Shown: positions 3,198-16,976, counted from the first letter of the stretch. The stretch: DNA of 17,293 bases from Vulcanimicrobiaceae bacterium (GCA_046262595.1 JBHEMM010000001.1:79863-97155); one strand, 5' to 3'. The notes: generated by a model not told the origin, from the sequence alone. Program-made: numbers and translations.

Positions 3198-4676
3198 ATG
3201 GCGTTCGATTCGCTGCGCGCGTTCGTGGACGCGCTCGATCGTGCCGGCGAATTGCACCGCATCGATGCGCCCGTCGACCCGTATCTCGAGGTGAGCGAAA
3301 TCACCGGCCGCGTCGTGAAAGCGGGCGGCCCGGCGCTGCTGTTTTCCAACGTGCGCGGGTCGGCGTTTCCCGTTCTGACCAATCAATTCGGCTCGCAGCG
3401 CCGCATGGCGTTGGCCTTGGATGCCGGATCGCTCGATGACGCCGCGGCGCGCATCCGCAAGCTGCTCGATCTTTCGATTCCTACATCCGGCTTGGGCAAG
3501 ATCGGCAAACTCTTCGATCTCGCGCCGCTGGGCGCGGCAATCCCGAAAACCGTTTCTTCGGGCAGCGTGCAGGACGTCGTTATCAACGATCCGGATCTGC
3601 GCAAGCTGCCCGTGCTCACGACGTGGCCGCTCGATGCCGGGCCGTTCATCACGCTGCCGCTCGTCATCACCAAGGATCCAAAGTCCGGACGCCCCAACGT
3701 GGGCATGTACCGCATGCAAGTCTACGGCGCGCGTGAAACCGGTATGCATTGGCAGCGTCACAAACAAGGGCGCGCGCACGCCGCGGCTGCGGGCGATCGC
3801 ATTCCGGTTGCCGTCGCCATCGGTTCCGATCCAGTATTGACGTACGCCGCTACCGCTCCACTTCCGCCGGTCGTTGACGAATTCGCCTTCGCCGGACTGC
3901 TGCGCGGAAAAGCGGTGAAGTTGGTTCAAGCCAAGACGGTCGATCTCAAAGTCCCGGCCGACGCAGAGTTTGTTCTTGAAGGGTACGTCGATAACACCGA
4001 CCGGCGCATGGAAGGGCCGTTCGGCGATCACACCGGAGTGTACAGCTTGGCCGATATGTATCCGACGTTTCACGTGCAATGTATCACGCACCGCAAGGAT
4101 CCGGTCTATGCGGCCACCGTCGTCGGAAAACCGCCGATGGAAGACGCCTGGCTGGGCAAAGCGACGGAACGGTTGTTCTTGCCGCTGCTGCAGATGGTCG
4201 TGCCCGAGATCGTGGATATGAATCTGCCCGTGGAAGGCGGTTTTCATAACCTGGCGATCGTCTCGATCAAAAAGTCATATCCCGGCCAAGCAAAAAAAGT
4301 GATGAATGCGCTGTGGGGCTTGGGACACATGATGATGCTTACCCGCGTGCTGATCATCGTCGATGCCGATGTGGACGTGCAGAACGCGCGCGAGACGGCG
4401 TGGTTCGTGCTCAACAACTTGGACGCGCAGCACGACGTCGTGATGATGCCCGGACCGGTCGACGACTTGGATCACGGATCGCATACGCCGGCCCTCGGCG
4501 TGAAGATCGGCGTGGACGCGACGCGTAAAAGCGCCGCCGAAGGCTACACGCGCGAATGGCCGCCGGACATGATCATGGACGAAGCGACCAGCAGCGCGGT
4601 GTCGGCGCGCTGGAAGGAGCTCGGCTTGGATCGCATCAAGCGCGCCGCCAATCCGTGGTCGGGGCAAGGCGGCTGA
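3198..4676 (+). CDS. ubiD: UbiD-family prFMN-dependent decarboxylase, probably the futalosine-pathway menaquinone decarboxylase (MqnL type)
   Basis: GPALLF, NVGMYRMQV, MHWQRHK, EGPFGDHTG, GKPPMED, SIKKSYPGQAKKV and GVDATRK motifs, and adjacency to a UbiA/MqnP-type gene. ATG 3198 (MAFDSLRAF) is preferred over TTG 3171. Confidence 0.92.
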   Translation: MAFDSLRAFVDALDRAGELHRIDAPVDPYLEVSEITGRVVKAGGPALLFSNVRGSAFPVLTNQFGSQRRMALALDAGSLDDAAARIRKLLDLSIPTSGLGKIGKLFDLAPLGAAIPKTVSSGSVQDVVINDPDLRKLPVLTTWPLDAGPFITLPLVITKDPKSGRPNVGMYRMQVYGARETGMHWQRHKQGRAHAAAAGDRIPVAVAIGSDPVLTYAATAPLPPVVDEFAFAGLLRGKAVKLVQAKTVDLKVPADAEFVLEGYVDNTDRRMEGPFGDHTGVYSLADMYPTFHVQCITHRKDPVYAATVVGKPPMEDAWLGKATERLFLPLLQMVVPEIVDMNLPVEGGFHNLAIVSIKKSYPGQAKKVMNALWGLGHMMMLTRVLIIVDADVDVQNARETAWFVLNNLDAQHDVVMMPGPVDDLDHGSHTPALGVKIGVDATRKSAAEGYTREWPPDMIMDEATSSAVSARWKELGLDRIKRAANPWSGQGG

Positions 4677-5542
4677 AAAACACCCTGCTGTTCCTTAAAG
4701 AAATTCGCGTGGAACATACGCTGTTCGCGCTTCCGTTCGCTTATACGGGCGCAATCTTCGCCGCGCGCGGCATTCCGTCGTGGCACGCGCTGCTTTGGAT
4801 CACGCTTGCGGTTCTAGGCGCGCGCACGGCGGCAATGGCCGCGAACCGCTACTTCGACCGCGACATCGACGGGCGGAACCCGCGCACGCAGCGTCGCGCG
4901 CTCGCGAACAAGACGCTCGCGCCCGGAGTGATGGTCGCGGCAATCGCGGCAGGCATTCTGCTGCTGATCGTCTCGGCGTGGGAACTGAATCCGCTCTGCG
5001 TCAAACTGCTGCCGATCGCGGCGCTCGGCGTGCTGGCGTATCCGCTGTGCAAACGGTTTACGTGGCTCACGCACTTCGTGCTCGGCGCGGTTGACGGCCT
5101 GGCACCGCTGGGTGCCTACATCGCCATAGCGGGAACGGTCTCGTTTCCCGCAGTGCTTCTCTTTGTCGCAGTGACGCTCTGGGTGGCCGGTTTCGACATC
5201 TATTACGCCCTCATGGACTTCGCGGTGGATCGCGAGCAAGGGATACGCTCGCTGCCTGCGGCGTTCGGGGAACCCCTGGGCCGCGCGATCCCGACTACGC
5301 TGCACTTGCTCATGTTCATGTGTCTGCTGCTCGCCGGCGCGGCGGCGCACACGGGACGCGGCGCGTTGGCGTACGAAGCAGGACTGCTCGCGGCATGGGC
5401 GCTGATCGCGGGCGAACTGTTGATCGTCCGCCGCTCGCAAAACGTCTTCGTCTTGAACGAGCGCATTTTTCGTGCGAACATGGCATTTTCGGTCGTTTTT
5501 CTCGTGACGACGGCCTGGAGTTTTTCGTTAAGCCGGGGATGA
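4655..5542 (+). CDS. ubiA: UbiA-family polyprenyltransferase, MqnP type (start uncertain: GTG 4655 or CTG 4673)
   Basis: EHTLFALPFA, ARTAAMAANRYFDRDIDGRNPRT and AGFDIYYALMD...D...GIRSLP motifs, with multiple TM segments. Confidence 0.9.
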   Translation: MVGARRLKNTLLFLKEIRVEHTLFALPFAYTGAIFAARGIPSWHALLWITLAVLGARTAAMAANRYFDRDIDGRNPRTQRRALANKTLAPGVMVAAIAAGILLLIVSAWELNPLCVKLLPIAALGVLAYPLCKRFTWLTHFVLGAVDGLAPLGAYIAIAGTVSFPAVLLFVAVTLWVAGFDIYYALMDFAVDREQGIRSLPAAFGEPLGRAIPTTLHLLMFMCLLLAGAAAHTGRGALAYEAGLLAAWALIAGELLIVRRSQNVFVLNERIFRANMAFSVVFLVTTAWSFSLSRG

Positions 5543-6705
5543 GCATGAACAGGCGCCGATTTCTTCTTTCCGCCACGGGCGCCGCAGGCGCCGCCGCGTT
5601 GCCGCTGGCGGCGCGCGCGCAGTTTAACGGTCGGTTTCAGCAGCCGCTCACCATCGCCGTCAACGCTCCGCTGTCCGGCAGCGGCGCGCAAGGCGGGCGC
5701 GAGATTGCCAACGGCGTGCAAGGCGCCATCGATGAAACCAACCGCGTCGGCGGAACGTTCGGCACGGCGTTCCAAATGCGCACATTCGATGATATGGACG
5801 CACTCGCGCAATCGATCGTGAACGTGCAGTTCGCCGCGGCGGATTCGACCGTCGTGGCGATGGTCGGCGGCTACGACGGTTCCCTGCTCGCCGCATCTCT
5901 GCAATCGTACGCCAACGAACAGATGCCGCTGCTCGTTGCCGGCTCGACCGCCGATCAGGTGACGGCGCGGGGATACCGCAACGTGTGGCGTCTGCCGGCG
6001 AAGGATTCGGTCGAAGGCCAACTCGCCGCTGATTTTCTCGCACGGCGCGAACATCCCAAGCTCGTCATTGCCGTCGCGCAGGAGGGCGACTATGGACCCG
6101 ACGTCGCGCAAGGTTTCGTCAACGGCGCCAAAGCGAGCAAACTTAACGCGCTGGCATATCTCTTTCCGTACGACAAGCCCGATTATCGCGCCGCCGCGAG
6201 CGCGCTCGCGCAAAAGCAGCCGGATTACGTCTATCTTTGCGGCGTAACGGCATCCTTGGGGCCGCTCATTCCGGCGCTGCGCGCCGCCGGCTACAAGGGC
6301 AAGTTCGGCGCATCGCAAGGCTTTTATAACGGCGCCGCACTTCAGGCGTACGGGCAAGACTTAGCGGGCGGAATCATCTCGACGTCAGCGCCGCCGCTCG
6401 AGCGCGCTCCCGACTTCGCGAACGCGCTTGCCGACTTCCGCCGCGGCTACGCTGTCACGACCCTCTCGGCGTTCGGCTACGCGGCAGCGCAGATCGTCAT
6501 CTCCGCCGTCCGCCGCACCGGCGCGACAAGCCGGTTGGCAACGATGACCGCGCTGCAAGCGCCGGTTCAGTACAACACGATGGCCGGCCCGTTTCAGTTC
6601 ACGTATTCCGGCGATGCGATCGATCCGCTCGTGTATTTCTACACCGTCACCGGCGGCAAACTGCGCTTTATTGCGCCCTCGCACGTGACGTCGTTCGTCC
6701 TGTGA
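5539..6705 (+). CDS. Periplasmic binding protein type 1, LivK/branched-chain amino acid SBP-like, with a Tat signal peptide
   Basis: MSMNRRRFLLSATGAAGAAALPLAARA has twin-Arg RRxFL and an AxA cleavage site. Also PLSGSGA...G, DYG...A..F and GYAAAQIV patterns. ATGA overlap with the ubiA stop. Confidence 0.85.
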   Translation: MSMNRRRFLLSATGAAGAAALPLAARAQFNGRFQQPLTIAVNAPLSGSGAQGGREIANGVQGAIDETNRVGGTFGTAFQMRTFDDMDALAQSIVNVQFAAADSTVVAMVGGYDGSLLAASLQSYANEQMPLLVAGSTADQVTARGYRNVWRLPAKDSVEGQLAADFLARREHPKLVIAVAQEGDYGPDVAQGFVNGAKASKLNALAYLFPYDKPDYRAAASALAQKQPDYVYLCGVTASLGPLIPALRAAGYKGKFGASQGFYNGAALQAYGQDLAGGIISTSAPPLERAPDFANALADFRRGYAVTTLSAFGYAAAQIVISAVRRTGATSRLATMTALQAPVQYNTMAGPFQFTYSGDAIDPLVYFYTVTGGKLRFIAPSHVTSFVL

Positions 6706-6835
6706 AGTGATGCGGTGCGCCGGGATGCACGTGTACCGGCGCGGCCGCCTGTTCCGGCGCTTCTTCCAGCATGAGCACGAACCGCAGTTTCCATGCGCCC
6801 AGTGCGATCGAAAAGTTTGCTCCCAACAACTCCAT
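6668..6835 (-). CDS. Putative 55-aa small protein, last ORF of the ytr-like operon
   Basis: ATG lies 4 nt after the permease stop, with GGAGG 9 nt upstream. Sequence MELLGANFSIALGAWKLRFVLMLEEAPEQAAAPVHVHPGAPHHFTGRTTSRARAQ. Confidence 0.5.
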   Translation of the reverse strand: MELLGANFSIALGAWKLRFVLMLEEAPEQAAAPVHVHPGAPHHFTGRTTSRARAQ

Positions 6836-6839
6836 GACT

Positions 6840-7874
6840 TTAAGCCTCCGCGCGGCGCCATTGCAGCACCGAGATTGCAAGGTATCCAAGAACGAGCGCG
6901 GCGAGCGCCGCGGCGGTGACGCTGAGCGTGAGGCCGAGCCCGGCCTGGACCACTGCGCCCGTCACTCGAAACGACAGATACGCGACGGGGTCCAAATAGC
7001 TCAGCGTGGTTAAAATGGTGTGGATCGCAGCCGCGACCGAGTTATAACGGCCCAGGGCCGATATCGCGTGCGCAGTACCGGGAATGATCAGCGCGACCAA
7101 CCATCCCAAACCGCACACTAAACCCGGACCGCGTTTGAGCGAAGCGCTTGCGGCGGTGATCACGGCGCACCAGGCGAGCGGCCCAAGCAGCGCGACCGCA
7201 ATCTCCATGGCGGTGCTTGCGGAAACGGTAAGTTTCGGGACGAAGAACAGCAAGCACGCGGCGAGCAGCACGGCGACGGTTAAGAGCTGCGCAGCCACGA
7301 CGCCCGCGCAATCGACGGCAAAAGTGCTCACTGCGTATGTTTCGCGCGAAACGGGCTTCGTCCAGGCCAGTTCCAAATGACCGTCGTTTTCTTTCGCGAG
7401 CGCGCCGCCGAGCATCGTCGCCGCCATCAGCGCGATCGGCATCGCGACGAGCAGCAGCAGGCCGATGTCGAAGGCGGGAATGCTATCGCGGTAGCGCAGT
7501 TGCGTGCGCCGCATCGTTCCGCCGGCAAACGTGGTTTCGTTCTCGTCCATCGATCCCATGGAGAGATGATTGTCGCGGGCGCGGGACGCCGGTTCGGTAA
7601 CGTTCATCTCCAACGCACCGTTCGGATGCTCGACGATCACCGCGCGGGTCTTGCGCGCCGGATCATCCACGACGATGCGTGTAACGCCTGCGCCAAGCGC
7701 TGTGCGCGTCACGCGGGCGGTGGGCGACCCGGACAGTTCGTTCGGCCACGTCCTGACGTTGGAGCCGTGCAGCGAGAGGCGCAAGACGATTGCGGTGACG
7801 AGCAGCACGGCGAGCACGATGCCGACGATGAGCAGCGTACGCCGCACCCGCAGCATTTCGACGTAATACGGCAT
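6840..7874 (-). CDS. ABC-2-type exporter permease with an extracytoplasmic domain after TM1
   Basis: About 6 hydrophobic segments, the ABC-2-like loop AKENDGHLELAWTKPVSRETY, and position 1 nt downstream of the ATPase. Confidence 0.8.
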   Translation of the reverse strand: MPYYVEMLRVRRTLLIVGIVLAVLLVTAIVLRLSLHGSNVRTWPNELSGSPTARVTRTALGAGVTRIVVDDPARKTRAVIVEHPNGALEMNVTEPASRARDNHLSMGSMDENETTFAGGTMRRTQLRYRDSIPAFDIGLLLLVAMPIALMAATMLGGALAKENDGHLELAWTKPVSRETYAVSTFAVDCAGVVAAQLLTVAVLLAACLLFFVPKLTVSASTAMEIAVALLGPLAWCAVITAASASLKRGPGLVCGLGWLVALIIPGTAHAISALGRYNSVAAAIHTILTTLSYLDPVAYLSFRVTGAVVQAGLGLTLSVTAAALAALVLGYLAISVLQWRRAEA

Positions 7875-7875
7875 A

Positions 7876-8775
7876 TTAGGCTTTCTCCACGATGTCGGCG
7901 CTTTGGCCGGCTTCTACGGCATTCAAAAAGATATCTTCCAAGTTGAGATCGACGATGCGCACGCTTTGCGCGCCCATGCCCGAAAGTGTTTGCGCCAGTT
8001 GTTCGCCGCCTGCGTTCACGGTAAGGCGCAAAATGCGCCCCGTGCGTTCGATGCGGCTTATACGCGCGTCGGCGCCCAAGCCGTTAACGGCGATCGCGTC
8101 GGTGGGAAAAATGGCTTCGACGATCTTCGACCCCGCTTTAAGATCGTCAACGGCTCCGCCCAGAACGATCCGGCCGCACTGAAGCACCGCCAGGTGATCC
8201 GCGGCCCGTTCGACTTGCCCGATTTGATGCGAGGAGAGCACGATAGTGGTGCCCTGCGCGGCGGCGTCGATGATCAATTTCAGCACGGAACGCTGATTCA
8301 CCGGATCTAAACCGCTCGTCGGCTCGTCGAGCACCATGGTTTTGGGCTCGATGGCGAACGCCAGCACGACAGCGAGCGCCGTGCGCATGCCTTTGGACAT
8401 TTGGCGCACGCGTTTGCGCGCGTCGAGGGAAAACAATTCCATCAGTTCGCCGGCGCGGCGCGCGTTGAAGCGGCTAAACGCGCGCTTCTGCATCTCCAGA
8501 TGTTCCGCGGCGGTCATCCATTCGTACAGCGCGCTGCGTTCCGGAACGTACGCGATCGCTTCAAATGCGGACGGCGTAAGCGGTTTGCCGTCGAAGCGCA
8601 CCTCACCGGAAGTCGCCGCCGCTAAGCCCAGCATGCATTTGAACGTCGTGGTTTTGCCTGCGCCGTTGGGGCCGAGCAATCCGAACACCGAGCCGTCGGG
8701 AATGTCCAGGCTCACGTCTTGCGCGGCGGCGAACGAGCCATAGCGCTTCGTCAAATGCTTGATGGATATGCTCAT
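7876..8775 (-). CDS. ABC transporter ATP-binding protein (YtrB/CcmA-like)
   Basis: Walker A GPNGAGKTT, signature MSKGM, Walker B VLDEPTSGLD and SSH switch. RBS GGAGG and ATGA overlap with the gntR stop. Confidence 0.95.
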   Translation of the reverse strand: MSISIKHLTKRYGSFAAAQDVSLDIPDGSVFGLLGPNGAGKTTTFKCMLGLAAATSGEVRFDGKPLTPSAFEAIAYVPERSALYEWMTAAEHLEMQKRAFSRFNARRAGELMELFSLDARKRVRQMSKGMRTALAVVLAFAIEPKTMVLDEPTSGLDPVNQRSVLKLIIDAAAQGTTIVLSSHQIGQVERAADHLAVLQCGRIVLGGAVDDLKAGSKIVEAIFPTDAIAVNGLGADARISRIERTGRILRLTVNAGGEQLAQTLSGMGAQSVRIVDLNLEDIFLNAVEAGQSADIVEKA

Positions 8776-9170
8776 ACTTCCTCCGGGAACCACCGCTTGA
8801 TCGCGGCGTCGAAATGGGCGCGTACTTGCGCCGGCGCTTGGCCGATCGATTTGGCATCGCGCACGGCGCGATCGAGCGTCAGGGCGGTGATGTCGCTCGC
8901 TGCCGAGCGGGCTGCGTCGGCCGTTCCGTTGCCGCGAATAAAGGAGCCGCGTCCGGGCGAGGTTTCGATGACTTCGTCCCGCTCCAGATCCCGGTACGCT
9001 CGCGCAACGGTATTGGGGTTGACCGTTAGGTCGAGCGCCAGCTGTTTTACGGTGGGCAGCTGCTCGCCGGGCGCCAGCACGCCGAGGGCGACCGAGCGTT
9101 TCACCTGTTCGATGATCTGCAGGTAGATCGGCACGCCGCTGCGCGTATCGACCGTCAAAACGGCGGGCAT
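8772..9170 (-). CDS. GntR-family transcriptional repressor, YtrA subfamily (132 aa)
   Basis: PIYLQIIEQVK...G.L.PGEQLPTVKQLALDLTVNPNTVARAYRDLE...GRGSF with a short C-terminal domain, directly upstream of the ABC genes. Confidence 0.93.
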   Translation of the reverse strand: MPAVLTVDTRSGVPIYLQIIEQVKRSVALGVLAPGEQLPTVKQLALDLTVNPNTVARAYRDLERDEVIETSPGRGSFIRGNGTADAARSAASDITALTLDRAVRDAKSIGQAPAQVRAHFDAAIKRWFPEEV

Positions 9171-9178
9171 CAGACGCT

Positions 9179-9295
9179 TTAGAGCTTCGGACCCCAGCCG
9201 AGGAAAAGACTGCCCGGTTGCTGCTGCAGCGGAAATGAGGGACGCGCTTGCTCGCCGTTGGCGGGCCGGACTTGGCGGTTGAGTTTCAAGGTCAT
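9179..9295 (-). CDS. Small peptide P1 (38 aa), first ORF of the GntR-ABC operon, member of the 'GWGPK' family
   Basis: MTLKLNRQVRPANGEQARPSFPLQQQPGSLFLGWGPKL. RBS GAAAGG upstream, located downstream of the promoter, and homologous to the ORF at 16662-16826. Confidence 0.8.
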   Translation of the reverse strand: MTLKLNRQVRPANGEQARPSFPLQQQPGSLFLGWGPKL

Positions 9296-9345
9296 GATGT
9301 GTCGCCTTTCGAGCGTCGTATTCGTCCAGTACCGCTTTGCCTGTC

Positions 9346-9363
9346 GTACTAGTACAGTAGTAC
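9346..9363. promoter_or_regulatory. Putative YtrA-type GntR operator
   Basis: Palindrome GTACTA-N6-TAGTAC fits the YtrA-subfamily GT-n-TA...TA-n-AC pattern and overlaps the -10/+1 region. On the minus strand it sits within three 8-bp repeats, TGTGCTAT-TGTACTAC-TGTACTAG. Confidence 0.75.
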
Positions 9364-9389
9364 AATAGCACAAGTTCGCGCCTTGTCAA
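9362..9389 (-). promoter_or_regulatory. Sigma70-type promoter of the P1-gntR-ABC operon
   Basis: Minus strand reads TTGACA-16 nt-TATTGT, with an extended TGn immediately before the -10. Confidence 0.75.
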
Positions 9390-9537
9390 GCGTTTTTGCT
9401 TGGCCGGGATATCGTTGAAAACCGACGCTCGGCACCCCATGGGTGCACAAGGCGGCAATTTTCGCACAAAGCGCGATCGCAGCCGCGTTGAGGTTTTTCG
9501 CCGAGCCCGTCAATGTCCGACGTCGAAAATGCCGAGA

Positions 9538-9581
9538 TGTCTCGTTGCGGAACGAGACAAAATCCGCGTCAGGCGACGCGG
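9538..9581 (-). terminator. Tandem hairpins downstream of the 9623-10531 gene
   Basis: CCGCGTC-N4-GACGCGG (9564-9581, followed by ATTTTGT on the minus strand) and TGTCTCGTT-N4-AACGAGACA (9538-9559). Confidence 0.5.
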
Positions 9582-9622
9582 CCGCCGCGACACTTCTGAA
9601 TACATACGGCGAGAAGTTCGGC

Positions 9623-10531
9623 TTAAATCGCCGGCTCCGTCAGCACGTCACCCGATGTCCGGAACATCGATAAATTCCAAGTAACACCCGGCACGTCAGC
9701 AGGCTGAATATGGTCGAACGTTATGCTGATGTTTGTATACCGGCGCCCCCGATATGGGAAAGGAGCGAGGGCACTTTCTGATACGATGTAACTGCCGCTA
9801 CCCTTATCGGCGAAGCGTATTAGCCAGGGTATGGTGGGCGCTGGGCCGGACGTAAAATTTCCTTGAACGATCACCTGAACAGTTTCAAACGTCTGCGCGT
9901 CTATCCAGAGTTCACGCAGCCTTAATAGGGCCGGATCACGTAAAGGCTTCAACCGGAGTTTCAGGCACGCCGTACCGTTTAGTGTCGTTGTACCATCGTA
10001 CGCTACCACATACTGTGGCCGGACGGCAGTGACGGCCGCAATCGTCTTTAAGGTTGGCGTTGCGAACGCAGAGTTCTTTTGCTGCAACAGCTCGGGAGGC
10101 CGCAGGCCAAACGAATACGTCGGCGATAGTAACGGTACGCCTAAAGTGTCATACTGTTCTTGCTGTGATACGCGGATCGCCTTAGAGACATGAATATCGC
10201 CGTCGTCACCGTCTGCGGATGGCGCTCCAGAAATCTTCGGATGTCTGGTGTAGCTTACTTTGAGGCGGACGGTAAAGTTTAGGCCGCGTGGAGTGTATGG
10301 TTTAGCCGCTTCTTGCGGACTCGTTGCGCGAACCTTTATGGCGCCGTCCGTCGTGTCGGTGAATGATGAATACGTGTTCATGAGAGTTGCGGACGGGATG
10401 TCAGCAGACACGTTTACGCTGTAGGTAAGAAATCGTGGATATTGCGCGGATGCCCATCTTGCGCGTGCGCGATCATAGATCTCGTATGGGTTGGGCATCG
10501 AAAGGATGAGGGCCAGCGCCGCAATAAACAT
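9623..10531 (-). CDS. Hypothetical secreted protein, possibly LolA/outer-membrane sorting protein-like fold; lower GC than its neighbours
   Basis: Hydrophobic N-terminus MFIAALALILS, beta-rich body and LKLRLKP...RLRELWIDAQTF motif. Sampled 60-nt lines are 50-55% GC. Confidence 0.75.
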   Translation of the reverse strand: MFIAALALILSMPNPYEIYDRARARWASAQYPRFLTYSVNVSADIPSATLMNTYSSFTDTTDGAIKVRATSPQEAAKPYTPRGLNFTVRLKVSYTRHPKISGAPSADGDDGDIHVSKAIRVSQQEQYDTLGVPLLSPTYSFGLRPPELLQQKNSAFATPTLKTIAAVTAVRPQYVVAYDGTTTLNGTACLKLRLKPLRDPALLRLRELWIDAQTFETVQVIVQGNFTSGPAPTIPWLIRFADKGSGSYIVSESALAPFPYRGRRYTNISITFDHIQPADVPGVTWNLSMFRTSGDVLTEPAI

Positions 10532-10579
10532 AGCTAATGCATCGTCTCAGATGAAGGCCGGCATTGCGGCAAAGAACCA

Positions 10580-10774
10580 GGTCGTAATGCGAACTGTCTG
10601 TGCACGAAAGCGTCGCGCGCCCGGAACCCGAGTTTCATCGACGACTATTTCATGAGGAATGCTCAGTGCCCTTGAACTCGGTTGGAAGCATCGCAAGGCA
10701 CCGGGCGGCCCGGGCCTTAAGTGCCAACGCTGCGGCCCAAGGTGGCGCGCAAATTCAGTCGGCCCTTTACGACC
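10580..10774. ncRNA. Candidate structured non-coding RNA (~195 nt, long irregular rod); family unassigned
   Basis: Six nested, colinear complementary blocks within a 427-bp intergenic region (see finding). Confidence 0.4.
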
Positions 10775-10958
10775 GTGCTTGCTGGCCGGCGTGCTCGCCG
10801 CCGAAATCCGCCAGTGCGAACATGTCGAGTTAGCCGCGCACAGTACTGCATCGTTTCGAAATGCCTTTTGGTCGGCTCAGCGCGCGGGCTCGCCGGCATA
10901 TAGCGGCCCGGGAAATGTATGCGGTGAAGCGAAGCGGCGGACGAGGCATTAAAATCCC

Positions 10959-12362
10959 ATGCGGCAACTCTTCCGAGGACCGTTCTCTCTTACGTACCGC
11001 GGCGAACGGATAGCGTTCTATCTGACGCTGCTCTTTGCGTTCCCGGCTGCAGCGGCGATCGGTTTTGTCCTGCGCGAAGACATTCATCCATCCCAAATAG
11101 CGGTGCTCGGCGTCATGGCCATGGTGTACGTGACGCTCGCGCGCGGCCGCCTGGTTGGCAGCAGCGTGCGCGTTCACGCCTCGCAGTATCCGCGCGTGTT
11201 CGCAATCGCGCAGCGCTGCGCGGCCGCACTCGACCTGCCCGTTCCCATGGTGTTCGTGCCGACGAGGTCGTTCCCGCTCGTCACGGTCGGCCTGGGCGAA
11301 CCGTATTCGCTCGTTATCTCCAGCAACTGGATCGAACATTTCCGCGACGACGAGCTTGCGTTCATGATAGGCCGCGAGCTCGGCCATATCGCCTCGGGTC
11401 ATGCGCGCTTCACCTCGCTGCTCAGCGTGAACGGCAACGAAAACGCCATCGTGTCGCTGATCTTCGGCGCGTGGCTGCGGCGCGCCGAGCTCACGTGCGA
11501 TCGCGTCGGGCTGCTGTGCTGCGGCTCGCTCGACGCAGCGATGCGCGCGATTACGGTCGCGTCCTTTCACGCGTTCGGACGGCAAATCGATCACCGCATT
11601 TTTGCCGAGCAAGCGCGCGACGTCAATGCCGATTCGGTACTGCGCATGGGCGAGCTCCTCGGATCGATGCCGTACGCGACGCGGCGCATCGAATCGATGC
11701 GCGTTTTCTTTGGAACCGAGCTGTACCGGCTGCACGAGGAACAATTTCTCAAAGAGAGCGCGCATGCGCCGGCGCTCGTTCCGCGAACGCTCGGTGCGCA
11801 GGTAACGAAAAGCGATTTGGCGGGCTGGTGGCGACGCATGGCCGCATTTGTCCTTGATTGGATCATCGTGCAGGCGCTGGTTACGACGCTGCTGGGCGTT
11901 GCCGCGCATCCGGTCGTTCAAATACACAGCGGTGATGCGGTGCAGCCAAAAGCGGTGGCCGCCGAAAACCTCGCCGTGCGCTCTTCGCCTGCGCTGTTTT
12001 CGATCGGCGGAGCAACGATTCACAGCGAGGGCGTCACGTGGAGAAACGCCGTTTCGCCCTGGAATAACGTGCGGTCCGGCGCCGTGGGCGCATTTTTTCC
12101 GCTCGAACTGTGCTTGTACTTCGGCTTACTGGTGGCGCTGGGCGGCCAGACGCCGGGCATGATGATTCTGGGCTTGAAAGTGGTGCGCACCGATTTCGGC
12201 AAGCCGGCGGTTGCGCAGAGCCTCTGGCGGTACGCCGCCGGCTTTCTGTTGTGCTGGATCGTTTTTCCGCTAAGCCCCTTTTCGCGTCTGTACCTGCACG
12301 ATCGCCTCTCGAAGACGCGCATCATCAAAACCGAACGGGCGCTCGCGCGCGTCTGCGCTTAG
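10959..12362 (+). CDS. Peptidase M48 (HtpX/Ste24)-like domain with a degenerate active site, fused to a C-terminal RDD domain
   Basis: Two N-terminal TMs, ELAFMIGRELGHI (HExxH position), WLRRAELTCDRVG, and RDD motifs AGWWRRMAAFVLD, GQTPGMMILGLKVV and LHDRLSKT. Confidence 0.85.
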   Translation: MRQLFRGPFSLTYRGERIAFYLTLLFAFPAAAAIGFVLREDIHPSQIAVLGVMAMVYVTLARGRLVGSSVRVHASQYPRVFAIAQRCAAALDLPVPMVFVPTRSFPLVTVGLGEPYSLVISSNWIEHFRDDELAFMIGRELGHIASGHARFTSLLSVNGNENAIVSLIFGAWLRRAELTCDRVGLLCCGSLDAAMRAITVASFHAFGRQIDHRIFAEQARDVNADSVLRMGELLGSMPYATRRIESMRVFFGTELYRLHEEQFLKESAHAPALVPRTLGAQVTKSDLAGWWRRMAAFVLDWIIVQALVTTLLGVAAHPVVQIHSGDAVQPKAVAAENLAVRSSPALFSIGGATIHSEGVTWRNAVSPWNNVRSGAVGAFFPLELCLYFGLLVALGGQTPGMMILGLKVVRTDFGKPAVAQSLWRYAAGFLLCWIVFPLSPFSRLYLHDRLSKTRIIKTERALARVCA

Positions 12363-12781
12363 CGCTGCAGCGCATTCTCGACCCGGTTGCGATAGTTCTC
12401 CACGCCGATCGCGCACAACAGCTCGACGATCTGCGCCGGCGTGTAATGCGCACGCAGATCGTCCCAAAGCCGGCCGGGCAACGCGCGCGGTTCGCGCGTG
12501 AGCGCGACGGACGCCGCAAGCGCCGCTTTTTCCGCATCGGTATACCTCACGCTGCGCGCATTGTCCCACAGGTCGTTGAGCTTCGCTGCTTGCGCGCCGA
12601 GATCGCGCGCACGCTTGCGGTGCCGCACGAGTGACGGCGTGCAAAAATTCAAGCCGGCGATCATGGCGGCGCACAGCGCTTTCGTCAGTTCCGACACGCC
12701 GCCGATGCCCATGACTGCCGCGGCATGCTCGTCCAAGGCTCGCGCCATCGCCGCGTTATCGTCCAGGGCGCCTCGCGCCAC
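12359..12781 (-). CDS. Carboxymuconolactone decarboxylase/AhpD-like protein
   Basis: TKALCAAMIAGLNFCTPSLVRH, YTDAEKAALA...LT and LRAHYTPAQIVELL..IG..NY.NR. Begins 2 nt after the regulator stop. Confidence 0.8.
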   Translation of the reverse strand: MARGALDDNAAMARALDEHAAAVMGIGGVSELTKALCAAMIAGLNFCTPSLVRHRKRARDLGAQAAKLNDLWDNARSVRYTDAEKAALAASVALTREPRALPGRLWDDLRAHYTPAQIVELLCAIGVENYRNRVENALQR

Positions 12782-12783
12782 GC

Positions 12784-14208
12784 CTAGCCCGGGCTTTGCG
12801 TGTAGCGGCGGAATCGCAGGTCGCCGCGCACGCCATCCATGCGCGGATCGATCGCCAACAGCGCCGCCGGTTCGTCAAATTTACCGCGCCGCAGCAGCGC
12901 GAGAGCCTCGCTTTTCTCGCCGTTCGCGATGAGCGCTGCAAGGAAATTGTCGTAAGACACGGCGTGCATCGCCAGGCCCGCGCGCGCGATGCGCAGCTCC
13001 GATTGCGCGCCGGCGGCGTCGTGCGCGCGGGCGTATGCGTGCGCAAGCAGTGCGGCGGCATCGTAGCGGCAATCCGTGCAGCGCCTGGCGTACGCCTTAT
13101 AGATCGCAATCGCCGCGCGTTCGTTGCCGAGCGCTTCATACGCCATGCCTATCGTTTCGTTTGCGCCGTAGCGCTGCGGAGAAAGATCCAGCGCTTGACG
13201 CCCGTACGCGACGGCGTCGCCGTAACGCCGTGAGATAAACGCCGCTTGCGCGAGCCAGTCGGCCGCCGCGACGCTCGAAGGATCCAAATTCGCCGCCGTG
13301 TTCAATTCGCGATAGCCCGCGAGCGCTTTGCCGCTCAACAGCAGCGCGGAACCGTACCATTGATGTGCCGGCGCATACTTCGGATCCAGCGCGAGCGCGC
13401 GGCGATATTGCGCGAAGCCCTCGTGCATCTGATGGCGATCGACGCTGACCAGCCCGAGCACCGCATAGGCTTCCGCAGATCCGCCGTTGAGCGCAATGGC
13501 CTTGCGCGCAAAGCGTGCCGCGAGAGCAAGCGCGTCTTTCTGCCGCAAACTGCCGTAGCCGTAATCGCCGGCGATGGCATACGCGGAAGCGAGCCCCGAG
13601 TAGCCGCGCGAATCGCGCGGATCGGTGCTTGTCACTTGAGCGAAATAGCGGCGGCTCTTTTCAATGCCGGCAGCGGTGCGCTGATTCCAGTAGTAGCGCC
13701 CCATCGCGTACAAGCGCGCTCCGGTGGCCGAGAGGCCCTGCCCCGGCATTGCGCTGCCATGCGGGCGCGCTGCAGCGAAAGCCGCTGCGCCGATTGCGAG
13801 CGCGAACAGGCATGCCGCCGCAGCGGCGATGCGAAAGCGTGCGGGAGCAGCAACGGGCGCGTGACGCGGCGCAAACGGCACTGCCTGCGAACTATCGTGC
13901 TCCAAACGAACCGGAGCGGTAAAACGATATCCGCGGCGCGGAACGGTTTCAATGACGTTCTGCGGCCAATGTGCGCGCAGCGTCTTTCGTATGACGTAGA
14001 TATTCTGCGCCAGGTTCGCCTCTTCGACAAAGCCCTCGGGCCAAATGCGGTCGAGAAGCTCGGTCTTGCTCGCGACCGCTCCACCGCGCTCGATCAGCGC
14101 CAGGAGCGTTTCAACGACCTTCGGACCGAGCGCAAGCGGTTCGCTTTCGGCGCAAAGCAAAAGCTGGCCGCTCTCGAGCCGGAAGGGACCAAACCGGTAT
14201 ATCGACAT
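12784..14208 (-). CDS. CadC/ToxR-like membrane-anchored regulator: OmpR-type winged HTH, one TM, and a TPR sensor domain
   Basis: YRFGPF, K.ELLDRIWPEGFVEEANLAQNIYVIRKTL and IETVPRRGYRF, then the TM IAAAAACLFALAIGAAAFAA, then TPR repeats (RRALALDPKYAPAHQWYG). AGGAG lies 6 nt before ATG 14208. Confidence 0.9.
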   Translation of the reverse strand: MSIYRFGPFRLESGQLLLCAESEPLALGPKVVETLLALIERGGAVASKTELLDRIWPEGFVEEANLAQNIYVIRKTLRAHWPQNVIETVPRRGYRFTAPVRLEHDSSQAVPFAPRHAPVAAPARFRIAAAAACLFALAIGAAAFAAARPHGSAMPGQGLSATGARLYAMGRYYWNQRTAAGIEKSRRYFAQVTSTDPRDSRGYSGLASAYAIAGDYGYGSLRQKDALALAARFARKAIALNGGSAEAYAVLGLVSVDRHQMHEGFAQYRRALALDPKYAPAHQWYGSALLLSGKALAGYRELNTAANLDPSSVAAADWLAQAAFISRRYGDAVAYGRQALDLSPQRYGANETIGMAYEALGNERAAIAIYKAYARRCTDCRYDAAALLAHAYARAHDAAGAQSELRIARAGLAMHAVSYDNFLAALIANGEKSEALALLRRGKFDEPAALLAIDPRMDGVRGDLRFRRYTQSPG

Positions 14209-14272
14209 CTGCAACTCCTGTGCGGCCCGAATATTGATGCCTTTCTCAAGATTCGGGTTTGCGCATGCACGC

Positions 14273-14278
14273 TATACT
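14273..14278 (+). promoter_or_regulatory. Putative -10 element (TATACT) for the outer-membrane protein gene; no good -35
   Basis: TATACT ends 9 nt before ATG 14288 in the 79-bp divergent spacer, and no SD is present. Confidence 0.45.
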
Positions 14279-14287
14279 TACTGGCAC

Positions 14288-16555
14288 ATGCGCAGAACAG
14301 CTTCAGCCGCCCTAGCCTTCTTCGCCCTTCTTTGGCCGAGCGCTTCCGTCCACGCCGCCGTGACCGCGCAAAGCGTCGTGCGGGCTCAGGCCGCGACGCA
14401 CCCGCCGAGCGCCGACCCGGCGCTGAAGGACAGCGAATGGCAGCGCGGCACGATCCCGGCGCCCGGCGGCTTTGAAAATCTCACGACGCGCTCGGCCGCA
14501 CCGCTGGCGACCGCCGTGTGGCTGCTTTACGACGCATCGAATCTGTACGTGGCAATTCGCGCGCAGCAGCACGGACTGCCCATCACCGCTTCGCAGACGA
14601 CAAATGACGTCGGGTTCGGCTTGGACGACTTCGTGGGCGTAGGCATCGATCCGAGCGGCGTCGGAACGCAAGCGTACTACTTCGAGCTGAGCCCCCGCGG
14701 CGTGCGGTACGAGCAGGCCAGCGAAAACGCGCGTTACCGCCCGCAATGGACGGCCGCCGCGGCAATCAGCGGCGATTCCTGGACAGGCGTGTTCGTCATC
14801 CCGTTGCGCGTGATGCGTATCCGCAGCGGCTCGCCGCAAACGTGGCGGATCAATTTCGTGCGCAGCATCGCCGCAAACGGCGAGCATTACACCTGGGCAT
14901 ACGACGGCCTCATGCAGGACGGCAGCGTGGGCAACGGCTGGCCGTCGTTCAACGACGTGCGCTATTGGGCGCAATGGAGCGGCATCGCCGTCGATCGCTC
15001 GATGCTGCGCGCGGCGCAGCCGAAACCGCGCGCCGAGATCTACGGCTTGGAAAGCGCTGGACGCGATCGCGATGTCTTTGCGCAGGCCAACGGCGCCTTC
15101 GAGCGGCAGCACGTGCGCGTGAGCGGAATCGATCTGACGTATCCGCTCACGCCAACGATCAACTTCGTCGGCACGCTCGCTCCCGACTTTTCCAACGTCG
15201 AAATCGACCAGCAGACGATCGCGCCGCAAGAATTCCGGCGGCAGTTGCAAGAGTACCGGCCGTTTTTCACGCAAGGCGCCAATTTCATCAATGCAAACGC
15301 CGTGCAGAACGGACCGAACACACTTTTTTATTCGCCGTCCGTCGGACCATTCGACCGCGGTGAAAAAATCGAGGGAACGTTCGGCAAGCAGTCCTTCGGC
15401 GTGCTCAACTTCCGCGGTTACGATCAAACGACCGGCAACGAGTTCGACGATACGTCCTACGGTTACAAGCATGCGCTTCAGAACCGGACGTTTCTATACT
15501 GGGCCGACGGCGTGCTTGCGCATCACAGCATCTTCGGGCAGGACGCAACGAACGAACTCGGCTTCGCCGTGCGCAATTTAAAAACCGGATTCGTCGGCGG
15601 TATCGATGAGTCGATGGAGCAAGGCTCGTGGGTTCCGGGCGGCCGCGCGCAGAGCACATTTGGCTTCGTGGACGTGCACAAGCCGAACTGGGAGATCAAC
15701 CTTGCCCAGACGCAGGTGACGCCGAACTATAATCCGATCGATGGGTTCACCACCACTTCGGACGTTCAAGGCCCTTCTCTGTTCGTGGACGCGACCGGAG
15801 CGACGCAGCGTTTGAAAAACTTTTTCTTCTTCGCGAACGCCGACCGGCTGCGCGATGAGTCGGGCGCCATCCATCAAGCCGATTTTGGTGTGTTCGTCAA
15901 CGCCACGTTCAAAAACGGTTTTTCGATCAACGGCATGGGGCCGCAGATAAGCGAGCTGCGCAATTATGCCGTCGTCGATCCCGCTTCGGCCGGAATGGCG
16001 TGCGGCGATCCCGCGCTGCCGCGCTCATCGTTCACCGGTTTTCCCGCGTACCGCTGCGGACGCACGGACAGCTACAACTTGTTCGGCATTCCGCTCGGGT
16101 ACGGAGACGGGACGCCCACGCCCGTCGATTTCTCGGCAAATTTCGGGCGGTTCGGTTACGGAAACGTCGGACCGCACGACAACGGTCCCGATGAACTGCA
16201 CCTCTACACGTTCGCGTTTTCGCGGCCTGTGCTTCGGGTGTTTTCGCTGGGTTTCGAGCTGGACGGCACGTACGAGCGCGCACTCTCGACCGGAGCGCGC
16301 GACGCACAGTTCTTGCGCCGCATTTCTCTGAGCACGCAACTCGGGCAGGACTCGAACGTCACAATTTCGCTTCGCGGTATCAACGGAAATGGCGGTTTTG
16401 CGCAGCCGGGAACGAACCTCGCTGCCGCTTTCCACCGCCGCCTGCGCAGCGGCGACGAGCTGTTCGTCAACTTCGGAACGCCTGCCGCTTCGCGCACGCT
16501 CGACCGTTTTATCGTTAAATACTTGTTCCGTTTCGGCGGTGATGCCGGCACGTAG
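14288..16555 (+). CDS. Outer-membrane protein with an N-terminal CBM9-like domain and a DUF5916-like beta-barrel
   Basis: Signal peptide MRRTASAALAFFALLWPSASVHA, CBM9-like T.VWLLYD..NLYVA...DDFVGV.ID...W.AAA...W...IP...WRINF.R, DUF5916-like PDFSNVEID and EYRPFF..G, and a C-terminal amphipathic strand FIVKYLFRF. Confidence 0.8.
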   Translation: MRRTASAALAFFALLWPSASVHAAVTAQSVVRAQAATHPPSADPALKDSEWQRGTIPAPGGFENLTTRSAAPLATAVWLLYDASNLYVAIRAQQHGLPITASQTTNDVGFGLDDFVGVGIDPSGVGTQAYYFELSPRGVRYEQASENARYRPQWTAAAAISGDSWTGVFVIPLRVMRIRSGSPQTWRINFVRSIAANGEHYTWAYDGLMQDGSVGNGWPSFNDVRYWAQWSGIAVDRSMLRAAQPKPRAEIYGLESAGRDRDVFAQANGAFERQHVRVSGIDLTYPLTPTINFVGTLAPDFSNVEIDQQTIAPQEFRRQLQEYRPFFTQGANFINANAVQNGPNTLFYSPSVGPFDRGEKIEGTFGKQSFGVLNFRGYDQTTGNEFDDTSYGYKHALQNRTFLYWADGVLAHHSIFGQDATNELGFAVRNLKTGFVGGIDESMEQGSWVPGGRAQSTFGFVDVHKPNWEINLAQTQVTPNYNPIDGFTTTSDVQGPSLFVDATGATQRLKNFFFFANADRLRDESGAIHQADFGVFVNATFKNGFSINGMGPQISELRNYAVVDPASAGMACGDPALPRSSFTGFPAYRCGRTDSYNLFGIPLGYGDGTPTPVDFSANFGRFGYGNVGPHDNGPDELHLYTFAFSRPVLRVFSLGFELDGTYERALSTGARDAQFLRRISLSTQLGQDSNVTISLRGINGNGGFAQPGTNLAAAFHRRLRSGDELFVNFGTPAASRTLDRFIVKYLFRFGGDAGT

Positions 16556-16661
16556 CTTGCAAATGTCGCATGAAACAAAAGTTGTAGCAGCGCGGTAACA
16601 AGCGGTGTAGATTACCAAATGGAGCGCGAATGCGCGCTCACACCATTAAAGGATTGTACCT

Positions 16662-16826
16662 GTGAAACCCGCGGCCAAACCGCCAGTGAAAACTCAAGAA
16701 ACCACGACGGAGAATCTCCGTCCGACCATCTCGCTGCAGCACGTCGTTGCAACGGGAACCGGTTCGTTCGGCGGCTGGGGACCCAAAGTTGCCGGCTCCG
16801 GCGGCCTCTTAAAAAACTGGAACTAA
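16662..16826 (+). CDS. Small peptide P2 (54 aa), stand-alone member of the 'GWGPK' family; absent from the ORF track
   Basis: GTG start with AAAGGA RBS. MKPAAKPPVKTQETTTENLRPTISLQHVVATGTGSFGGWGPKVAGSGGLLKNWN is homologous to P1 and is flanked by 5' and 3' hairpins. Confidence 0.8.
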   Translation: MKPAAKPPVKTQETTTENLRPTISLQHVVATGTGSFGGWGPKVAGSGGLLKNWN

Positions 16827-16935
16827 TGCTTTTAAAGTTTCATCCGCGGAATAACTCTGCGGCATGAAAATGAAGGCGCACGGATTCGACCCGGACGCCT
16901 TCATGGCTAGACTCCTCGTAGAGTGCAGCAAGGAC

Positions 16936-16976
16936 GGGCCGGCGATGTCTCCACCATCGCCGGCCCAAATTTCTTC
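16936..16976. terminator. Strong hairpin between the convergent P2 and aldo-keto reductase genes
   Basis: Perfect 12-bp stem GGGCCGGCGATG / CATCGCCGGCCC with a 7-nt loop, followed by AAATTTCTTC. Confidence 0.65.

Follow-up and report, generated by a model that had tools for sequence, protein, structure and literature searches.

A lineage-specific family of short GWGP[KR] peptides in Eremiobacterota, tentatively read as portable leader open reading frames

Two paralogous small open reading frames (ORFs), P1 and P2, are encoded in a 17,293-nucleotide stretch of Vulcanimicrobiaceae bacterium DNA (GCA_046262595.1, JBHEMM010000001.1:79863-97155), hereafter the window, with positions counted from its first letter. 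Comparative analysis indicates that both are real genes under purifying selection, and that they belong to a lineage-specific family of proteins that are short, cationic and unstructured and whose defining motif is F-x-G-W-G-P-[KR]-hydrophobic. We tentatively read this family, at rather less than even likelihood, as a portable leader ORF, in which the nascent or just-released C-terminus would act on its own ribosome and thereby gate a coupled downstream cistron. The family, an operator upstream of P1 and a structured RNA that follows P2 appear to be undescribed in the libraries and literature searched, while the kinds to which they may belong (leader ORF, small regulatory protein, transcript combining an ORF with a small RNA (sRNA)) are already known. 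The two ORFs are:

9179..9295, minus strand: P1, a 38-aa ORF of the short type of the GWGPK family and first cistron of an operon, ending LFLGWGPKL-TAA
16662..16826, plus strand: P2, a long-type ORF of 54 aa that starts with GTG, carries the motif SFGGWGPKV and ends in the tail AGSGGLLKNWN-TAA

P1 translates as MTLKLNRQVRPANGEQARPSFPLQQQPGSLFLGWGPKL and the GTG-initiated P2 as (M)KPAAKPPVKTQETTTENLRPTISLQHVVATGTGSFGGWGPKVAGSGGLLKNWN, exactly as written in a preliminary description of the window. That description had aligned the two peptides in two blocks of the same order that differ by a 3-residue indel, and the alignment was reproduced here with 12 invariant columns. It had also noted codon differences at synonymous sites (ggc tgg ggt ccg aag in P1 against ggc tgg gga ccc aaa in P2) and a ribosome-binding site on each ORF, both of which were found again, with AAAGG 10 nt 5' of the P1 ATG and AAAGGA 8 nt 5' of the P2 GTG. 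The proposed paralogy is supported by BLASTP of the pair (11/27 identities, E 6e-05 for this single comparison). In a six-frame translation of the source genome (2.42 Mb, 122 contigs, GC 62.7%, 89.7% complete), there are three instances of GWGPK and eleven of RP[ST]xxLQ, and only P1 and P2 contain both motifs. A chance origin of the shared motifs is excluded. A relaxed motif search of the same 89.7%-complete genome yielded no third family copy.

Longer ORFs overlap both genes in other frames. A 231-aa ORF (8772-9467, minus strand) overlaps P1 and is an upstream extension of the frame of the GntR gene that follows it, and an 82-aa ORF (16619-16867, plus strand) overlaps P2. In all 30 aligned GntR orthologues the start corresponds to the ATG at 9170, against the 231-aa reading. 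Conservation follows the short frames, which supports P1 and P2 over the overlapping ORFs.

Homologues with an intact frame are present in many relatives for both P1 and P2. The short (P1) type, which is the ancestral form of the family, measures 34-47 residues in the translated regions of relatives and has an F-x-GWGP[KR]-hydrophobic-stop ending. The long (P2) type measures 51-60 residues and carries an extra conserved tail (LKNWN), ending in ...[KR]NWN; the start codon is GTG at 12 of 14 loci and ATG at the other two (G014 and G006), with AAAGGA 7-9 nt upstream in most. An R-P-x-hydrophobic-x-L/P block lies some 14-18 residues before the F-x-G-W-G-P-[KR] motif. Using a two-sequence profile, both paralogues were located at a spacing of 2.5-12 kb on a single contig in nine relatives (G001, G002, G003, G008, G014, G019 and the unpublished G022, G023 and G030), and on separate contigs in G010. 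Counts given here include nine loci from genomes flagged as unpublished (G022, G023, G030, G031 and G059); the results that come from these genomes alone are an RNA absence in four loci and the G022 arrangement, both described below.

A profile search of 1.84 billion cluster representatives returned 55 matches at E <= 0.001. The 50 that were fetched are all 34-87-aa peptides of the two types, and we take the other five, proteins of 773-3471 residues, as low-complexity matches. A P2 profile run against a protein collection clustered at 90% identity matched 149 proteins, which where named are each a 'hypothetical protein', with a Pfam domain in none; they originate from Baltobacteraceae, Eremiobacteraeota or Vulcanimicrobiaceae and in one case from Dormibacteraeota. 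The exact word LFLGWGPK was present in 41 stretches among one genome per species (185,579 species); 31 were confirmed, giving 30 loci, of which 28 have Eremiobacterota/Vulcanimicrobiota-type titles and two read 'uncultured bacterium'. A P1 profile of 30 sequences was also run against 200 further genomes from the phylum (E <= 0.05). Matches were obtained in 95 of 113 genomes of family f1, two of three of f2 and all 15 of f3, whereas the 18 other families gave matches in seven of 69 genomes, all weak (E 0.004-0.05). The family has so far been found, judging by these searches, in one class of Eremiobacterota, with no convincing member elsewhere among the genomes searched. Many relatives hold two to four family matches per genome.

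The preliminary description had recognised no known family, and our searches agree. Neither peptide has a match in Pfam (E up to 10) or NCBIfam (E up to 1), and a PDB profile search with the family alignment gave three matches, all at E 2 or worse. Rfam searched over the whole window (E up to 1) gave four sub-threshold chance matches, none at P1 or P2. The ESM Atlas queried with P2 returned unnamed clusters only (best score 0.85) and no structure, and the literature full text searched contained no mention of 'GWGPK'.

Selection on the protein, as opposed to a DNA repeat, had been proposed from the codon differences and is borne out by the relatives. The median pairwise ratio of nonsynonymous to synonymous substitution (dN/dS) is 0.34 among P1-type sequences (dS finite in 46 of 55 pairs) and 0.31 among those of the P2 type (in 40 of 45 pairs), and a mean proportion of synonymous differences (pS) of 0.64-0.65 places synonymous sites near saturation. 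Within the motif, all four Gly codons and all four Pro codons are in use. Over all fetched DNA we tallied 99 distinct instances, in which the F is present in 99, the P in 97 and the K/R in 95. A stop follows one hydrophobic residue after the K/R in 68 of the 99 (P-[KRNT]-hydrophobic-stop), and 21 carry the P2 tail of 10-13 residues after the motif. The residue after the K/R in the 78 short forms is L in 32, I in 19, F in 13, V in seven, A in six and M in one. The N-termini vary in both sequence and length, and the C-terminal block is the most conserved part of the peptide. An AlphaFold2 model built from a 51-sequence alignment shows no secondary structure (predicted local distance difference test (pLDDT) 69.5, predicted template modelling score (pTM) 0.15). 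Neither the sequences nor this model contain a hydrophobic segment, transmembrane segment, signal peptide or amphipathic helix in P1 or P2. With five Pro in 38 residues, P1 is not proline-rich.

P1 is the first cistron of an operon composed, on the minus strand, of the following features:

9362..9389, minus strand: sigma-70-like promoter of the P1 operon (TTGACA, 16 nt, TATTGT, with TG before the -10; 10/12 matches)
9346..9364, minus strand: near-palindromic operator, presumed GntR binding site, consensus TTGTACTAGT-GT-ACTAGTACAA, overlapping the -10 box
8772..9170, minus strand: YtrA/PmtR-like GntR repressor of 132 aa without an effector domain, ATG 8 nt after the P1 stop (Pfam GntR, 9.4e-15)
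7876..8793, minus strand: ABC ATPase, DrrA-, lantibiotic-protection- and PmtA-like (Pfam, NCBIfam)
6840..7874, minus strand: presumed ABC-2-type permease of 344 aa, with an N-terminal transmembrane segment, a loop of about 110 aa and five to six more transmembrane segments (hydropathy, synteny)

The promoter is kept in 11 aligned relatives. In the consensus alignment the operator is a near-perfect palindrome of 22 bp, and it is conserved to class level. A single copy of its core, GTACTAGTAC, is present in each matching locus (46 of 109 loci), and where loci were compared this copy sits immediately 5' of the P1-type ORF and not in front of P2 or another paralogue. The sole match in the source genome is its own promoter, and because the operator is unique in this way, control by the YtrA-type repressor seems to be confined to the operon that encodes it. 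Against NCBIfam, the GntR protein scores 1.6e-19 with the Rv1152 family and 1.3e-16 with PmtR, both below the curated cut-off. The ATPase matches PmtA at 5e-34 and the DrrA, lantibiotic-protection, GldA and NodI models better, all below curated cut-offs, and shows no peptidase domain in Pfam or NCBIfam. Pfam support for the permease is weak (ABC2_membrane_4, E 0.24).

The order P1-GntR-ABC ATPase-permease is kept in every relative inspected, and class-level relatives with this order have peptides that retain only ...F-x-GWGP[KR]-hydrophobic. In all 48 distinct junctions the gap between the P1 stop and the GntR start is 3-20 nt, and a GGAG, GAGG or AGGA core precedes the GntR start in only nine of them. 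As the gap is this short and the GntR start usually lacks a Shine-Dalgarno sequence of its own, coupling of GntR translation to that of P1 is well supported by the comparison. Two other roles for the codons of the motif were considered and rejected. As a Shine-Dalgarno sequence for the next gene, the G-run of the GWGP codons would lie 16-21 nt or more from the start, and the synonymous codons vary freely; a Trp-codon attenuator would have a single Trp codon and no Trp-related cargo.

The position ahead of a coupled gene is not peculiar to the P1 operon. Thirty further places were fetched from genomes with extra matches, and the peptides at all 30 end in the motif. Downstream genes, named by Pfam, are:

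DUF4097 toastrack plus DUF6249: six loci in one genus, gap 0-2 nt in five and unresolved in L086
BlaI plus BlaR1-M56/pentapeptide protein: two loci, gaps 9 and 11 nt
ECF sigma gene: one locus, gap 5 nt
S9 peptidase: one locus, gap 34 nt
MsrA: one locus, gap 37 nt
nitronate monooxygenase (NMO): one locus, gap 48 nt
bestrophin-like protein: two loci, overlapping

Cargo genes such as the exporter, BlaI/BlaR1, ECF sigma, toastrack and MsrA point to envelope or antibiotic stress. The downstream products share no fold, and therefore a single peptide ligand common to them all, or a peptide that binds its own neighbour, is unlikely. In the two toastrack loci with a scanned upstream gene (L078 and L080), that gene is a divergent ECF sigma. 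At L087 (G135, 3813-7605) a virginiamycin-B-lyase-family gene is divergent from the peptide-BlaI-BlaR1(M56)-pentapeptide-repeat operon; the BlaR1-like protein there has pentapeptide repeats, and no penicillin-binding sensor domain was seen in the Pfam scan.

Most members, P2 excepted, share a tightly coupled position at the 5' end, a C-terminal block of about tunnel length and a free N-terminus. On the leader reading, the conserved C-terminal residues, about 20 in number and so about the length of the exit tunnel, would act on the synthesising ribosome at or just after termination, and the peptide would set the frequency with which this ribosome leaves the stop codon and starts again at the following cistron. 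In the self-repressed P1 operon this would add a translational gate on top of the transcriptional one, and P2 would be a derived copy with a structured RNA, not a protein gene, as its downstream cargo. Candidate arrest upstream ORFs (uORFs) are described by uORF position and a conserved C-terminus, with a localisation signal for Sec/YidC monitors only (PMC10987492), and the position, conserved C-terminus and unstructured nature of the present peptides fit this description, the localisation signal apart.

The -P-[KR]-[LIVF]-COOH end would provide a concrete route to stalling at the stop codon, by its likeness to apidaecin. Apidaecin occupies the tunnel in the orientation of a nascent chain, with R17 and L18 contacting the release factor and P-site tRNA (PMC11347161), and traps RF1/RF2 through its last two residues (PMC11347161; PMC7544508); P11, R12, R17 and L18 are intolerant to change (PMC11347161). 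A more specific version, which rests on this analogy and which we consider distinctly unlikely, makes the family an endogenous counterpart of apidaecin, the -G-P-[KR]-hydrophobic end staying in the tunnel after hydrolysis and holding the release factor at its own stop codon. It would form a tunable roadblock 0-20 nt before the starts of YtrA-type GntR, BlaI and ECF sigma genes, with P2 the same module joined to an anti-Shine-Dalgarno-type regulatory RNA. Were it true, this would be a new class of termination-arrest leader peptide, and insect type II proline-rich antimicrobial peptides (PrAMPs) would copy a mechanism that bacteria already use on themselves. The stop codons are a further point for the leader reading in general. 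In 81 regex matches, including one evident false match, the stop is TAA in 58, TAG in 18 and TGA in five, against a background in 1460 long ORFs of the source genome of 42% TGA, 31% TAA and 28% TAG; the instances are related and not independent. The P2-type ORFs share the bias, with TAA in 15 of 21.

Several observations weigh against a leader that acts at its own stop. The TAA preference may partly reflect Shine-Dalgarno-like junctions of TAA followed by purines and, as the P2-type ORFs make clear, is not limited to coupled copies. The distance to the stop is not strict, as 10 of the 78 short forms end two to three residues after the K/R. The likeness to apidaecin comes to three residues, and the family lacks both equivalents of P11-R12 and proline richness. 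The P1/GntR junction shows no conserved RNA structure (-5.25 kcal/mol, 0/8 pairs covarying), although a mechanism of direct occlusion or coupling would not require one. The 21 long-tail instances have no downstream gene and place the motif 10-13 residues from the end (we take the one ORF called after a long-tail copy, 124 aa with no Pfam match, as spurious), and P2 is kept under purifying selection with its own conserved tail despite the lack of a downstream ORF. In Rubrimentiphilum-type loci a short P2-like copy (GWGP[KR]A-stop) occupies the P2 slot and abuts a convergent gene. Seven further instances also lack a downstream ORF by the criteria applied, one being followed directly by a terminator-like hairpin, and free-standing copies count against a leader ORF because an ORF that acts only in cis would not be expected to survive by itself. 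P2, the short P2-like form and several free-standing copies point to a function of the peptide after its release, which is why we hold the leader reading at less than an even chance.

These same copies come naturally to the main rival explanation, namely that the family consists of diffusible small regulatory proteins that all bind a single shared partner in the cell, with the bipartite motif as their linear binding motif. Each paralogue would be made upon induction of its host operon or transcript, so that several stress inputs converge on the partner. One mechanism would then cover both P1 and P2, free-standing and last-cistron copies being expected, and the conservation of P2 over its whole length, tail included, and the presence of two to four paralogues per genome in many relatives are in keeping with it. 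For P1 the partner could, by analogy, be the YtrA-type repressor, as phenol-soluble modulins (PSMs) release PmtR from its operator, or the ABC exporter, in view of the YtrG-like position. The GntR protein lacks an effector domain and resembles PmtR and the Rv1152 family below cut-off, its operator is unique to its own promoter as PMC5080381 indicates for PmtR and pmt, and a small first-cistron protein of the ytrA operon is functional in Bacillus subtilis (PMC13729164). However, the neighbour cannot be the shared partner, since paralogues precede unrelated GntR, BlaI, ECF sigma and enzyme genes, and no candidate partner accompanies every copy. The range of different cargo genes is not accounted for, and the peptides lack the amphipathic helix, transmembrane segment or signal peptide that would liken them to PSMs and YtrG. 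We regard this explanation as rather unlikely, though worth serious consideration.

The P2 locus differs from the P1 operon in its surroundings and contains the following elements:

16571..16653, plus strand: P2 upstream region, with a TGAAAC...GTA box, a GTGTAGATTA box, a covarying hairpin at 16621-16639 and an AAAGGA Shine-Dalgarno sequence at 16648-16653
16827..16976, plus strand: structured RNA after P2, with hairpin 1 at about 16838-16869, hairpin 2 at about 16870-16904 and a terminator hairpin with T-run at 16936-16966
16912-16935, plus strand: conserved single strand CTCCTCGTAGAGTGCAGCAAGGAC of the P2 RNA, between hairpin 2 and the terminator

P2 lies 3' of a DUF5916-like gene, which is itself divergent from a winged helix-turn-helix (wHTH), transmembrane and TPR regulator of the ToxR/CadC-like kind. 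In G033, and in the unpublished G022, P2 is directly divergent from the TPR regulator and DUF5916 is missing. The complete genome G018 has no P2, and DUF5916 there abuts a convergent aldo-keto-reductase gene. The TGAAAC and GTA elements upstream of P2 (16571-16614, plus strand) are spaced about 18 nt apart, and the boxes are conserved. No sigma-70 consensus was found upstream of P2, and together with the GTGTAGATTA box the elements resemble an ECF-sigma-type more than a sigma-70 promoter.

The 150 nt 3' of P2 are conserved better than the P2 ORF itself and form three hairpins, the last a terminator. RNAalifold predicts 32 pairs, 21 with compensatory changes. A covariance model places the element directly after P2 in all 17 sources (the window and 16 loci of named public records), nine of them outside the set from which the model was built, and once in the source genome. 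In the 17-sequence alignment, which is fitted to the covariance model and so favoured by it, 93% of cells pair and 31 of 32 pairs have changed on both sides, a level reached by none of 500 shuffles, while slid controls reach 28-43% pairing. In 16 of 17 sources the loop of hairpin 2 is CCUCCAC, which is anti-Shine-Dalgarno-like, and in the window itself it is UUCGAC; the single strand CUCGUAGAGUGCAGCAA hardly varies. At E <= 0.01 the search did not recover the element after the P2-type ORFs of four unpublished-genome loci (L015, L037, L038 and L039, the last with only about 200 nt left after the ORF), nor after the short P2-like ORFs. Given no promoter match and the terminator at 16936-16966, we infer that P2 and its 3' RNA are on the same transcript.

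This strongly covarying RNA, its placement after P2 in the 17 sources and its loop raise the prospect that P2 is the coding part of a dual-function transcript and works with its 3' RNA, as CcaF1, a DUF1127 protein, does with the CcsR sRNAs in the 3' UTR of its own mRNA; copies of the P1 type might act likewise on their own mRNAs. A precedent exists in ccaF1, which is co-transcribed with sRNAs that have CCUCCUCCC loops (PMC8034643). We nevertheless consider this very doubtful: the peptides lack a DUF1127 or other RNA-binding domain in Pfam and NCBIfam, the loop of the window departs from the anti-Shine-Dalgarno form, the RNA was not found in the four unpublished-genome loci or after the short P2-like ORFs, and P1 is not addressed. 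No target stood out either, as blastn-short searches of the source genome with the conserved single strand gave only short matches of chance size.

Between the P1 operon and P2 lie three larger genes:

10959..12362, plus strand: M48-like membrane peptidase domain fused to RDD, with RELGH in place of HExxH; a cluster neighbour in many relatives
12784..14214, minus strand: ToxR/CadC-like regulator with winged helix, one transmembrane segment (129-147) and TPR repeats, divergent from the DUF5916/P2 unit
14045..16555, plus strand: DUF5916-like secreted or outer-membrane protein, an 836-aa ORF, followed by P2

In many relatives the M48-like/RDD gene lies between P1 and the DUF5916/P2 unit, and in four genomes it is directly adjacent to P1. 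Its motif, GRELGHIA[SA]GH, keeps the Arg in 18 of 18 distinct orthologue variants, and the protein may be non-catalytic or have an unusual metallo-site. The domain is predicted to be cytoplasmic from two N-terminal transmembrane segments. The 5' end of the DUF5916-like ORF overlaps the divergent regulator gene, and alignment with orthologues begins only at about residue 60-120; translation probably starts further into the ORF, ahead of a signal-like segment (residues 88-106). A 302-aa ORF (9623-10531, minus strand) between the M48-like gene and P1 has no family match and, by tblastn, no counterpart in the loci of relatives. The same slot in relatives holds genes for GGDEF/PAS proteins, AAA_16 ATPases (fused to a LuxR-type GerE domain in two loci), an AraC regulator and a chromate transporter. 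A nearby UbiA/UbiD pair represents ordinary synteny beside a binding-protein gene.

The preliminary description had likened the two conserved blocks to the leader-recognition and core layout of ribosomally synthesised and post-translationally modified peptide (RiPP) precursors or to peptide signals. Peptides with Trp-Lys crosslinks and with prenylated Trp exist, and one could picture RP..LQ as a recognition sequence and FxGWGPK as the segment that an enzyme from another locus modifies, through a Trp-Lys crosslink or Trp prenylation for instance. The peptides are short and conserved with an invariant Trp and Lys, and the cluster includes an ABC transporter and an M48-like peptidase. Yet neither the window nor the variable inserts of relatives contain, by Pfam, a radical-SAM, YcaO, lanthipeptide, ATP-grasp, peptide-prenylating or C39-peptidase gene, and no maturase family was found when the inserts of four relatives and the neighbours of ten other paralogues were scanned. 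It is moreover the would-be core at the C-terminal end that is invariant, not the N-terminal leader, and copies are scattered before unrelated operons. The RiPP layout is not sustained, and we judge a RiPP or pheromone precursor highly improbable, although the peptides may still act as signals.

The same genes invite the idea of leaderless peptides that serve as signals or apidaecin-like antimicrobials, exported by the ABC-2 system and either sensed in the periplasm by the TPR domain of the ToxR-like regulator or processed by the M48-like protein. A peptide gene with a regulator and an ABC exporter is the usual layout for such systems, P1 and P2 are cationic and unstructured, and P2 is divergent from the wHTH-transmembrane-TPR regulator. 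TPR regulators flank three other paralogues: at L081, L083 and L085 (in G202, G190 and G008) these adjoin large HTH or BTAD regulators with NB-ARC and/or TPR. This adjacency could be a peptide-TPR pairing or, such regulators being common, chance. There is no export signal or double-glycine leader, the ABC protein has no peptidase domain, and the M48-like domain is predicted cytoplasmic with the first His of HExxH missing. First-cistron copies before BlaI, ECF sigma and MsrA are also hard to explain in this way, and export has, in our estimate, a low probability.

Eremiobacterota are abundant soil and peat bacteria. To our knowledge they have almost no experimental biology. The family offers a testable element of about 40 residues with five invariant positions and at least 99 natural variants, and in its class it stands at the head of those operons that are the likeliest to govern envelope and antibiotic stress. 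If it is a leader peptide, it would supply a new arrest or coupling motif and a single module that can be moved before unrelated regulators; if a diffusible protein, a new linear-motif hub. Gene callers miss or mis-frame such ORFs, as with the 231-aa overlap on P1. The P2-linked RNA adds a further undescribed structured RNA with strong covariation.

Several known systems resemble parts of this arrangement. RNAIII/hld is a dual-function RNA. P2 resembles the ccaF1-CcsR locus of Rhodobacter (PMC8034643) in being a small ORF followed by conserved hairpins, CCUCC-type loops and a terminator, and differs in that P2 has no DUF1127, the RNA has no Rfam match and there is one RNA unit in place of four repeats. 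PmtR of Staphylococcus aureus is a YtrA-like GntR protein that autoregulates an ABC exporter operon and is released by the signal-less PSMs that the exporter carries (PMC5080381). Like PSM/PmtR/PmtABCD, the P1 operon combines a YtrA-like GntR and an ABC exporter with an operator at its own promoter; its matches to the PmtR and PmtA models are below curated cut-offs, and PSMs are amphipathic helices encoded elsewhere, whereas P1 is rich in Pro and Gly with no helix predicted. YtrG, which is functional, is the first gene of ytrGABCDEF in B. subtilis, before a YtrA-type repressor and ABC genes (PMC13729164). P1 is likened to it by position, as a small first cistron before a YtrA-type repressor and ABC genes, but YtrG is a monotopic transmembrane protein (PMC13729164) and P1 has no hydrophobic segment.

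Like apidaecin, a type II PrAMP, the short-type peptide is unstructured and cationic with a -P-(R/K)-(L)-COOH end, which the P2 end does not fit. Where apidaecin has its Pro-Arg pair, 6-7 residues before the C-terminus, the short-type peptide has S/G-L-F. Apidaecin comes from insects and acts in trans after import. The string 'WGP' is absent from the main text of the arrest-peptide survey PMC10987492. In contrast to the Sec/YidC monitoring substrates, P1 and P2 lack an N-terminal signal or transmembrane segment.

TnaC and SpeFL are regulatory leader or arrest peptides that act at or near termination. The family departs from them in that neither an attenuator nor an RBS-sequestering structure (RBS, ribosome-binding site) was found at the P1 junction, and in having free-standing members such as P2. 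The P1 type nevertheless shares with leader and arrest peptides a short ORF directly upstream of the gene it precedes, a variable N-terminus and a conserved C-terminus rich in Trp, Gly and Pro, and such peptides likewise occur as lineage-restricted families.

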